Of a stretch of 1,549 nucleotides of DNA, positions 1 through 1,549 are shown one piece after another. The notes under the pieces are model-generated. The model was not told where the DNA came from, did no database searches, and saw nothing but the letters and a program-made list of their open reading frames with translations. Position numbers and translations under genes: made by a program. Location: NCBI RefSeq assembly GCF_988243305.1, contig NZ_OZ547142.1. The stretch is one strand, 5' to 3'. The stretch is from a plasmid. Position 1 is the first letter of the stretch. Each line of letters starts with the position of its first letter.

Positions 1-196
1 CACTGGTCAACAAAGACGGTGATATTCAGCGCCGAATCATGGCCATGTTTTCAAATTGAGCTAGCGGCAGGCGGACAATCAGGGGCTACGTGTTAACGTT
101 CTGACCATGATTGTCTATCCTGCATTGCTCTTTTGCCGCCTCAAAATCCTTTGCGTGTTTTTGCTCCCCGTTCTCCAGAAAAAACCGAGCCGCCAC

Positions 197-250
197 GGTT
201 CCGGCAGCGCCTTGAGCGCTACCGGAAACCGTCTGGGGAGAACCCCAGAC
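197..250 (+). other. Two adjacent GC-rich hairpins in the non-coding region
   Basis: Hairpin A: TTCCGGCAGCGC (199-210) pairs with GCGCTACCGGAA (216-227), 11/12 with a C205/A221 mismatch, loop 211-215. Hairpin B: GTCTGGGG (231-238) pairs perfectly with CCCCAGAC (243-250), loop AGAA. Confidence 0.5.
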
Positions 251-326
251 CCCCATCGCTGCAACACCGACGGTCTACGACCACCTACCAACCGCATGGC
301 TGCCTGTTCCGTGCAAATGGGCTTTG

Positions 327-350
327 CAGGGGGCTGGCGCGGTTCCTGGC
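327..350 (+). other. Candidate ColE1-type origin motif (G-run plus GGTTCCTGGC), i.e. possible RNA primer to DNA transition region
   Basis: CAGGGGGCTGGCGCGGTTCCTGGC shares CAGGGGG and the 10-mer GGTTCCTGGC with the pMB1 ori region (...GTCAGGGGGGCGGAGCC...ACGGTTCCTGGCC...) in the same orientation as the two stronger matches downstream. Spacing differs from pBR322, so this is tentative. Confidence 0.25.
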
Positions 351-524
351 GACCTGAAAGCCCCTGGTTAGGGGTATCGGCGCGCTTGACCTCCTGAGAG
401 CCTCTGTAAGCGTTTTTCGCGCCTTCCATGCCCTGGCGGGCATCTAAAACCCGTTTCGTGCGTCTGAGAGCTTTTGAGCGCGTTTGAGGGGCTATCTGGC
501 GACTCATCCCCAAAAGAACAACAC

Positions 525-558
525 CGGGATCACAGACAACATGCGAGAGGTGATCCCG
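525..558. other. Hairpin (9-bp stem, 16-nt loop) abutting the conserved backbone segment
   Basis: CGGGATCAC (525-533) pairs perfectly with GTGATCCCG (550-558). Confidence 0.5.
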
Positions 559-626
559 CTCGCCGCAAGTCGATGACCGAGCGTAGCGAGCGAATCGACG
601 AGGAAGCGGAAGAGAACCGGAAGCCA
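551..626 (+). other. Conserved ColE1-family origin-distal backbone segment (region where pMB1-type plasmids carry primosome assembly sites)
   Basis: TGATCCCGCTCGCCGCAAGTCGATGACCGAGCGTAGCGAGCGAATCGACGAGGAAGCGGAAGAGAACC aligns by eye at about 75% identity to the reverse complement of the pUC/pBR322 stretch ...CTTCCGCTTCCTCGCTCACTGACTCGCTGCGCTCGGTCGTTCGGCTGCGGCGAGCGGTATCAG... That orientation is RNAII-sense. Confidence 0.55.
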
Positions 627-680
627 CATTGAGCACTTACGCACTGATGCGGGGTGTCGGGGTGAAGCCCTGACCAAGTG

Positions 681-839: not shown

Positions 840-902
840 TGTAAGCCAGTATACACTCCGCTATCGCTACGTGACTGGGTCAGGGCTTCGCCCCGACACC
901 CC
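840..902 (-). other. ColE1/pMB1-type bom (oriT) nic region homolog; predicted nick on the minus strand
   Basis: The + strand GCCAGTATACACTCCGCTATCGCTACGTGACTGGGTCAGGGCTTCGCCCCGACACCCC (845-902) is near-identical to the pBR322 bom segment as I remember it (GCCAGTATACACTCCGCTATCGCTACGTGACTGGGTCATGGCTGCGCCCCGACACCC). The complementary strand carries ACTGG|CTTA, which I recall as the ColE1 nic sequence; this places the nick between the complements of 846 and 845. Confidence 0.6.
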
Positions 903-904
903 CA

Positions 905-933
905 AAGGGCGTTGCGTGCAACGCAACGCCCTT
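905..933. other. Perfect hairpin / 29-bp near-palindrome (13-bp stem, 3-nt loop) at the module junction
   Basis: AAGGGCGTTGCGT (905-917) pairs base-for-base with ACGCAACGCCCTT (921-933), loop GCA 918-920. No U-tract follows on either strand (GCCTAGAATAG on +; TGGGGGTG on -), so it is not a canonical intrinsic terminator. Confidence 0.6.
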
Positions 934-935
934 GC

Positions 936-997
936 CTAGAATAGATCTTTTACGCCGATTTGTAAGTGGTTGTTTTTTTAGTGTGTTTTTTATTTAC
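936..997. other. AT-rich tract with T-runs between the GC-rich backbone and the operator sites
   Basis: Sequence GATCTTTTACGCCGATTTGTAAGTGGTTGTTTTTTTAGTGTGTTTTTTATTTACC has T7 and T6 runs. Composition changes abruptly here relative to upstream. Confidence 0.5.
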
Positions 998-998
998 C

Positions 999-1046
999 TG
1001 TCGCATCCTGGATGACACAACGTTGTCGCATCCAGGATGCGACAAC
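999..1046. promoter_or_regulatory. Two tandem palindromic operator-like sites (25-bp period) immediately upstream of the -35 region
   Basis: Copy 1 (999-1021, TGTCGCATCCTGGATGACACAAC) and copy 2 (1024-1046, TGTCGCATCCAGGATGCGACAAC) match at 20/23 positions. Copy 2 lies in a perfect 25-bp palindrome (1022-1046, 12+1+12, centre A1034). Copy 1 is an imperfect palindrome around T1009. Core of each is CATCC-N-GGATG. Confidence 0.55.
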
Positions 1047-1131: not shown

Positions 1132-1549
1132 ATGTTTATTGATTCAGAAAAACGACTGAAACAACTTTCAGATGAGGCAAAGAAAAACACCGAGGATCTC
1201 GAAGAAGCAAAGAAAAATTCAAGGTTTACACAGGTATCCCCAAAAGGTTGGGAACGTGTTCGAGAGCTGCTGAAGGATAGCCAAGGCATATCAGCACTGA
1301 AGCTGTACTCATTTTTAGCGGAGCATATCGATCCTACGTGTGGCGCTGTCGTTGCGGATCAGCAATTCCTAGCTGAAAAACTTGGAGTTAGCAGAAGCAC
1401 AATTATTCGGTGGCTCAATTACTTAGAATCAAAAAATGCATTAGTTAGAATCCCCGTTGCTGGTAAGGTTTGTGCGTATGCCCTCGATCCACATGAAGTC
1501 TGGAAGGGATACAACACTACGAAAAACCATGCAGCGTTTGTCACTAAAA
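1132..1549 (+). CDS. Partial ORF (3' end beyond window) encoding a winged-helix DNA-binding protein with RepL-like replication-initiator architecture
   Basis: ATG at 1132 is the first start after an in-frame TGA at 1090-1092 and is preceded by AGAGGGA at 1118-1124. 139 codons read without a stop to the window end, which is presumably why it is absent from the ORF track. Translation begins MFIDSEKRLKQLSDEAKKNTEDLEEAKKNSRFTQ (charged, K/E-rich) and continues ...ISALKLYSFLAEHIDPTCGAVVADQQFLAEKLGVSRSTIIRWLNYLESKNALVRIPVAGKVCAYALDPHEVWKGY. The helix-turn-helix followed by G-x-hydrophobic-x-A-L-(N/D)-P-x-E pattern matches my recollection of staphylococcal pSN2-type RepL (Pfam RepL family). Family assignment is from memory, not a search. 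Confidence 0.6.
   Translation, partial: MFIDSEKRLKQLSDEAKKNTEDLEEAKKNSRFTQVSPKGWERVRELLKDSQGISALKLYSFLAEHIDPTCGAVVADQQFLAEKLGVSRSTIIRWLNYLESKNALVRIPVAGKVCAYALDPHEVWKGYNTTKNHAAFVTK

Follow-up and report, generated by a model that had tools for sequence, protein, structure and literature searches.

The stretch of DNA analysed here (the window, 1,549 nucleotides) is a complete 1549-bp Escherichia coli plasmid of the Col(MG828)/pKL1 type. Circular 1549-bp plasmids of E. coli and Klebsiella, which are also typed Col(MG828), match it from end to end with 99.5-99.7% identity. Its sole convincing gene encodes a helix-turn-helix Rep protein of 158 amino acids. This protein belongs to HTH_36 in Pfam, the match to RepL being weak, and falls into a cluster of 1164 members, one of which has been named 'RepA plasmid replication protein' by a source. 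The features of the window are as follows.

1132..1549, then 1..59, strand +: rep gene, spanning the circular junction (the last 59 nt, stop codon included, lie at 1..59)
346..353, strand +: left copy of CTGGCGAC, a deletion end-point seen in the relatives L060 and L065
394..415, strand +: repeat copy 1, CTGAGAGCCTCTGTAAGCGTTT, with the left 8-mer CTGAGAGC at 394-401 and the right 13-mer TCTGTAAGCGTTT at 403-415
396..655 (approximate), strand +: non-coding origin-accessory cassette, common to IncX4 and other plasmids
402..423, strand +: most conserved core of the upstream block of the cassette, CTCTGTAAGCGTTTTTCGCGCC, kept in IncX4, IncX1 and Arsenophonus plasmids
428..443, unstranded: hairpin (dyad) A, ATGCCC-TGGC-GGGCAT, with an invariant stem and a loop that is free to vary
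460..488, strand +: micro-tandem array with a 10-bp period, containing copy 2 (TRF: 2.9 copies, 78% matches, score 37)
464..485, strand +: repeat copy 2, quoted as CTGAGAGCTTTTGAGCGCGTTT, where most relatives read CTGAGAGCTTCTGAGCGCGTTT
496..503, strand +: right copy of CTGGCGAC, the other deletion end-point in L060 and L065
526..557, unstranded: hairpin B, GGGATCAC...GTGATCCC, partly kept via compensatory changes in relatives
556..609, strand +: long conserved hairpin with CCGCT paired to the AGCGG of GAAGCGG, homologous to ColE1 n'-pas/ssiA
842..906, strand +: ColE1-type oriT (bom/nic) segment, 95% identical to ColE1 1462-1526, outside the cassette
940..1046, unstranded: A+T-rich stretch (~940-998) with an IHF-like site (963-975), followed by four RepA-operator repeats TGTCGCATCCWGGATG (999-1044)

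The last of these regions, 940-1046, is probably the Rep-dependent oriV together with the operator. The sequence TGTCGCATCCWGGATG has four occurrences at 999-1044 and none elsewhere in the window, and the best direct repeat of the window (19/22) is located at 999-1046. Plasmid pKL1 is said to originate from E. coli KL4 and to have been studied by Burian et al. in 1997-2003. The size of pKL1 is given as 1549 bp (PMC12839544), and its oriV is described as located upstream of rep and as containing an IHF box, Rep-binding sites and a perfect inverted repeat of 16 bp (PMC3832669). As far as these accounts extend, pKL1 and the window plasmid agree in size and in replicon type Col(MG828), and their origins are alike in that each precedes rep and contains an inverted repeat and an IHF box; the window agrees with the oriV described because its A+T-rich stretch holds the sole IHF-like site and is followed by the four TGTCGCATCCWGGATG repeats. 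The GC content is 55-66% in the block 150-700 versus 37-50% in rep and the operator, a contrast that is consistent with a mosaic origin.

Several other elements were observed along the window. A 29-nt inverted repeat (651-679 / 874-902, 93% complementary) joins two oriT-related segments, and positions 650-735 match (83-92%) the mobA-mobC intergenic region that, in large plasmids typed IncFIB/IncI-gamma/K1, adjoins a MOBP relaxase gene. Two different oriT-like sites, inverted relative to each other, may therefore be present in the window plasmid. Directly after the ColE1-type oriT segment, at 905-933, there is a perfect hairpin with a 13-bp stem (AAGGGCGTTGCGT gca ACGCAACGCCCTT), which stands where ColE1 has the sequence following nic. 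Another hairpin, GACAATCAGGG...CCATGATTGTC (74-115), is located just past the rep stop codon and is probably a portable terminator; it is also present in IncX4 plasmids, there after the gene downstream of the initiator and in the opposite orientation (L002 6371-6431). The minus strand contains a good intrinsic-terminator-like site at 208..189, with TCGGTTTTTT after it and, before it, a perfect hairpin of 8 bp (232-251) and a further small hairpin (about 268-278). The minus-strand elements at 180-251 look like the 3' portion of a small RNA whose transcription would run towards rep; no promoter for it was found.

The 22-bp direct repeat, from which the analysis started, is a less substantial feature than the operator repeats. 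The preliminary description had placed its copies at 394-415 and 454-475, 60 bp apart, with 16 of 22 positions identical. Copy 1 is indeed at that position, but copy 2 lies at 464-485, the start-to-start spacing is 70 bp and the copies agree at 17 of 22 positions. The shared 8-mer CTGAGAGC has exactly two occurrences in the window (394 and 464), both on the + strand. Beyond the 22 nt the repeat does not extend, the sequences flanking copies 1 and 2 being unrelated. When the window was shuffled 200 times with its dinucleotide composition preserved, 22% of the shuffles contained an ungapped direct match of 17 or more in 22 nt, which places the repeat no higher than chance; with the match confined to within 200 bp, the proportion was 5.5% of 200 shuffles.

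Conservation of the repeat was followed in three sets of homologs. The first consists of 14 aligned loci from a plasmid collection. The second comprises 25 unique sequences from genome contigs, and its conservation estimate is biased because the retrieval pattern lay inside the repeat region. For the third, a pattern from 541-567, outside the repeat region, was used to avoid this bias, and it yielded 56 unique sequences from metagenome contigs. The results of all three sets are concordant; since most homologs are at least 90% identical, the conservation partly reflects recent common descent. The 8-mer CTGAGAGC is not kept in copy 1, and copy 2 is an indel-polymorphic micro-tandem. In the third set, copy 1 begins with CTGAGAGC in 22 of the 50 full-length unique homologs, other versions of this 8-mer among homologs being CTGAAACC, CTGAAACG, CTGAGACT, (T/C)AGAAAGC, CTGACCCC and CTGTACAC. 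Positions 398, 400 and 401 show the lowest conservation of the region (~46-60%), and the two copies agree at 14 to 18 of the 22 positions (third set). Only the right halves are conserved in both copies, TCTGTAAGCGTTT in copy 1 and TCTGAGCGCGTTT in copy 2, and these halves (TCTG-N3-GCGTTT) are kept as far as IncX4. One 10-nt unit of the micro-tandem is absent from L003, L006, L019 and L035, which include IncX1 and one IncX4 lineage, and from 5 of the 56 unique metagenome sequences. The copy-1 part is found alone in L004/L008 (homologous to 254-432), and the copy-2 part alone in L005 (homologous from 454).

A natural deletion of 151 bp, with its end-points in the two copies of CTGGCGAC, removes the entire repeat region in L060 and also occurs in L065. 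L060 is a 5,609-bp circular plasmid that keeps a 99.4%-identical Rep and its operator despite the deletion. Because it also has a second, Rep_3-type replicon, the deletion is no proof that the region is dispensable. In the assembly, L060 is a 5,609-bp unit repeated in a contig of 12,785 nt, and it is cointegrate-like, as is L065. In both, the Rep and operator of the pKL1 type are accompanied by a second initiator (Rep_3), three pas-like segments and a duplicated 192-294 segment, and both illustrate cassette-driven recombination among small plasmids.

From these results it can be stated with high confidence that the 22-mers are neither iterons or Rep sites nor conserved as a pair. As a repeat, they are a near-chance resemblance that deserves little weight, and their annotation as iterons or as an origin is unwarranted. 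The preliminary description had also assigned the repeat to a putative origin-proximal region; this holds insofar as the repeat is part of the origin-accessory cassette, but the Rep-binding origin is elsewhere, at 999-1046.

The cassette at about 396-655 is the unit that is shared among plasmids, and in small plasmids the shared block reaches left to about 184. Its upstream block contains the core and hairpin A. The loop of hairpin A has at least eight different sequences among homologs, and the stem survives one base-pair loss (L019) and one base-pair gain (L004). Hairpins A and B are separated by CCCGTTTCGTGCG and the micro-tandem (460-488). The core and hairpin A are still present in IncX1, Arsenophonus and IncFII_repA-type plasmids, where overall identity is 72-84% and the flanks are wholly diverged, and mosaic break-points are located within the upstream block at 396, 432 and 454. 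The fold of 370-640 is no more stable than that of shuffled sequences on either strand (z about +1), so that the local hairpins alone are meaningful.

The open reading frames over this region, 107-397 (+), 115-636 (-) and 285-443 (-), are unsupported, because homologs carry frame-breaking indels of 1, 2, 10 and ~60 nt and because homology break-points cut the frames. Some records annotate 107-397 (+) and 504-629 (-) as 'hypothetical protein' or 'replication protein'; both frames are very probably spurious. No known RNA family (Rfam) or promoter was found in the cassette, and no sigma-70-like promoter on either strand. DnaA boxes (TTWTNCACA) and IHF sites (WATCAANNNNTTR) are absent from 390-660; matches to these consensus sequences occur in the window at 963-975, 1058 and 1224 only, a number at or below chance.

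The right part of the cassette can be assigned to a known class of elements. Homology to the ColE1-type site covers about 524-655 of the window (69-72% by blastn), and 556-652 matches ColE1 1309-1405. With the cassette profile, nhmmer gave E values of 3.9e-18 for ColE1 and 1.8e-21 for L011, and the homology to ColE1-type plasmids is confined to the part from about 524 rightwards, up to about 655. In ColE1, the homolog of 556-652 is situated after the origin and the DnaA box TGTGGATAA and before oriT. The n'-pas/ssiA of ColE1 is exposed by Pol I extension and recruits PriA (PMC3167613), and the homolog of 556-652 is taken to be this documented ssiA because the position in ColE1 coincides (PMC3167613). 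The segment 556-609 forms a hairpin of about 55 nt, for which RNAalifold gives 16 pairs with an invariant CCGCT/AGCGG stem; compensatory double changes are found in 4 of the 16 pairs across lineages, ColE1 included. Judged by sequence and predicted fold, 524-655 is a homolog of the phiX174-type primosome assembly site (ssiA).

The part that contains the repeat is different in this respect. The segment 394-485 is not homologous to a characterised pas, the profile match to ColE1 beginning at about 524, and no homology to ColE1-type plasmids was detected upstream of that point. When 396-523 was aligned with the whole of ColE1 by Smith-Waterman, the score fell short of the shuffle mean, and no homology of the segment was detected to ColE1, to R6K or to an Rfam family. 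The window likewise gives no Rfam match, at E up to 1, to a ColE1-type RNA II/RNA I origin.

Tandem units upstream of a pas are also found in other plasmids. In vectors of the pMB1 type (pBR322/pUC), the 11-bp unit GGCCTTTTGCT stands twice in tandem between the origin and the pas, whereas it occurs once at this place in ColE1 (cf. L009 1215-1245). This duplication parallels the polymorphic 10-bp unit at the corresponding distance upstream of the pas in the cassette. Such tandem units may reflect slippage-prone DNA near replication start regions.

The cassette is distributed independently of the Rep type. It lies in DNA that carries no annotation, and the neighbouring rep genes belong to the HTH_36/RepL-like, RepL, Rep_3 (two kinds), IncFII_repA and RPA families; its hosts are small cryptic plasmids, IncX4, IncX1, one plasmid typed IncN and one Arsenophonus plasmid. 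Where iterons are visible (IncX4, L017, L018 and L016), the order is always cassette with its pas end proximal, 70-200 bp of A+T-rich DNA, 4-6 iterons and rep, with DnaA boxes at the iterons in some. The window shows this order as well, except that two oriT-related segments are interposed. In each of the seven independent contexts (7/7), the cassette and rep share a strand. Among 5426 complete E. coli genomes, 600 contain it, and 740 of its 747 places are on plasmids. Near-identical copies of the plasmid are also present in assemblies labelled Streptomyces, Mycobacterium, Flagellimonas, Clostridium, Halobacillus and others; these contigs (L021-L030, L036-L041) are about 0.4-1.7 kb long, some with low coverage, and they look like laboratory or sequencing carry-over rather than evidence of true hosts.

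Some related plasmids show additional elements. The IncX4 initiator is preceded by 1.4 kb of non-coding DNA that has a clear structure and lacks annotation. Extra co-oriented elements of about 40 nt are found upstream of the cassette in IncX4 (L002 3430-3469 and 3619-3658) and also in L005, L007 and L019, with a consensus of about CTAAAACGCkCTGwAwCGCry-TCTrAGCGnTTTTT. Single R6K-type iteron-like sequences (AAACATGAGAA...) occur at L002 3838 and 3953; the iterons of IncX4 itself differ from these. In R6K (L042), an isolated 26-nt element resembling hairpin A, TCGCCTTCTATGCCCTCGCGGGCATC, is located at 2035-2060, about 3 kb left of the gamma origin and at the end of a small annotated ORF (nhmmer E 0.0024 in a small search).

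Taken together, the reading preferred here, with a probability of roughly 60%, is that the 22-bp repeat is incidental and lies in a Rep-independent priming module that uses the host primosome. The shared 8-mer would have two separate sources: in copy 1, a hypervariable tetranucleotide would by chance read GAGC in this lineage, and on the side of copy 2 the match would stem from a slippage-type 10-bp tandem duplication. The true feature would be the cassette of about 396-655, composed of the core, hairpin A, the micro-tandem, hairpin B and the ColE1-type primosome assembly site. This cassette appears to be portable among plasmids with unrelated initiators, on the A+T-rich side of the iterons and on the rep strand. 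Opening of the origin and unwinding of the flanking DNA would make the + strand of the cassette single-stranded; the host PriA would then recognise the hairpin at 556-609 and assemble PriB, DnaT, DnaB/DnaC and DnaG. In this way the helicase would be loaded and DNA synthesis primed independently of the plasmid's own Rep, with no need for plasmid-specific contacts, much as in ColE1 and with the priming signals beside oriR of R1/R100. The upstream block holding the repeat would be an accessory part of the module.

The steps of this proposal differ in strength. The homology of the cassette, the conservation of its sequence and structure, its context, its orientation and its occurrence beside unrelated Rep families are direct observations. 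The cassette probably helps the host priming machinery to start DNA synthesis. Its dependence on PriA would follow from the homology to ColE1 ssiA, and any role of 396-523 is a guess, since nothing homologous to this segment was detected in ColE1, R6K or the Rfam families.

Known elements that could have accounted for the upstream block were also considered and rejected. A resemblance between copy 1 and the enhancer of the R6K gamma origin (GCTTTGAGAGGCTCTAAGGGCTT) did not hold: blastn against the R6K record gave E = 0.39 on the opposite strand, and nhmmer gave no match there. A likeness to ColE1 ssiB, TCTGT(A/G)AGCG-N18-GCCCGTCAGGGC on the ColE1 minus strand beyond oriT (1545-1585), is not significant and was rejected because the local alignment of 396-523 with the whole of ColE1 scores below the shuffle mean. 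For primase start sites, the + strand of 390-490 has 4 CTG versus 0 CAG, with P ~0.06 for the difference and 0.17 for the CTG count. A G4-type primase-dependent ssi was also set aside, as no G4 match was found in the phage collection and the CTG nearest to hairpin A is 21 nt 3' of it.

Among the alternatives to an incidental repeat, the one that survives best is that both copies are genuine recognition sites, in which a motif of about TCTG-N3-GCGTTT is bound or used by a host factor, for example a priming or loading protein. In its favour, the right half of each copy is conserved in small plasmids as well as in IncX4, and the related motifs TCTGAGCGnTTTT, often after CTGTAaCGCaTT, are found 2-3 times per IncX locus versus about 0.07 expected (an estimate), all on the rep strand and in non-coding DNA. 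However, the motif was defined post hoc from the pair itself, which makes the enrichment statistic circular, and IncX1, Arsenophonus, L004 and L005 keep one recognisable copy or neither. The CTG strand bias expected for primase start sites is not significant, the DnaA and IHF consensus sequences are absent from the region, and we know of no factor with the consensus TCTG-N3-GCGTTT. This explanation is possible but unlikely.

A more far-reaching suggestion, and an unlikely one, is that 396-523, with its core, hairpin A and the TCTG-N3-GCGTTT motifs of the repeat, could be an undescribed Rep-independent initiation signal that is exchanged among at least five initiator families. If so, the segment would be a new single-strand initiation or leading-strand start element alongside the adjacent PriA-type pas, and in Rep-dependent plasmids it would replace the role of the RNA II primer region of ColE1. 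The conserved upstream block of the cassette may deserve an experiment.

It is quite unlikely that the region functions in a transcript, with hairpin A followed by TTTAAA acting as a weak terminator or RNA structure and the repeat halves being part of the RNA. The GC-rich invariant stem of hairpin A, its variable loop and the short T/A run that follows would suit such a function; the U1/U2 elements of IncX4 end in T-runs, and a good minus-strand terminator is present at 208..189. Against this, neither strand yielded a promoter-like site, terminator prediction did not pick out hairpin A, there is no Rfam match, and the fold of 370-640 does not exceed the stability of shuffles on either strand.

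The possibility that 396-523 is functionless and hitch-hikes with the pas, the repeat and its conservation being neutral, is very unlikely, even though most homologs are closely related, the natural 151-bp deletion removes the upstream block, and the break-points 396, 432 and 454 lie inside this block. Neutral DNA would have to account for a core and hairpin A that persist in IncX1, Arsenophonus and IncFII_repA-type plasmids despite diverged flanks, and for a hairpin stem that has survived both a paired deletion and a paired insertion.

The reading as an iteron-like pair to which the plasmid's RepA binds deserves next to no credence: the repeat does have a typical iteron length of 22 bp and lies in non-coding DNA of a Rep-encoding plasmid, but there are only two copies, 77% identical and 70 bp apart in DNA of 57% GC; the sequence is found next to five Rep families that are unrelated and have different iterons of their own; the RepA operator repeats are at 999-1046, their units at 999-1044 having no counterpart in 394-485, where loose 9-mer matches are at chance; and the pKL1 oriV is reported upstream of rep in the available text of PMC3832669.

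The preferred reading, an incidental repeat within a host-primosome priming module, has consequences for annotation. The cassette of about 260 bp adjoins the origins of the very common small Col(MG828) plasmids and of the clinically important IncX4 and IncX1 plasmids, IncX4 being a vehicle of mcr-1. In the records it is unannotated or, in some, mis-annotated as 'hypothetical protein' or 'replication protein' ORFs, and its recognition would improve plasmid annotation. The cassette would also explain the mosaic break-points and the recombination between small and large plasmids, and it points to PriA-dependent priming by the host as a shared dependency of unrelated replicons.

Compared with known systems, the 22-mers resemble the true iterons of R6K/IncX and Rep_3 plasmids in being direct repeats of about 22 bp in non-coding DNA near rep. 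The true iterons of the compared plasmids are present in 4-7 tandem copies (4-6 in L002, L017 and L018) with 21-22-bp spacing, are Rep-specific and lie beside an A+T-rich stretch; unlike these, the 22-mers of the window occur in unchanged form beside unrelated Rep families and are not maintained as a pair. The ssiA of ColE1/pMB1 and the window segment of about 524-655 have the motif GAGGAAGCGGAAG in common, their hairpin is conserved, and they agree in strand orientation and in order relative to the ColE1-type oriT. Where the window has 394-485, in contrast, ColE1 has the RNA II / RNA-DNA switch region, with no detectable similarity; ColE1 uses the RNA II primer, whereas the window plasmid depends on a Rep protein and has no RNA I/II match. 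R6K itself is without the cassette, and no sequence homology of the cassette to phage G4 was found. Masai, Arai and Nomura reportedly described, in 1989-1991, the ssi signals of F, R6K and ColE2, and a G-site and pas downstream of oriR in R1/R100. The signals of the R1/R100 type are like the putative priming signal of the cassette in that they provide host-dependent priming a few hundred bp from the Rep-binding origin, have a fixed orientation and are usable with different initiators. The cassette is a new and widely distributed example of the pas/ssi regions that flank plasmid origins.
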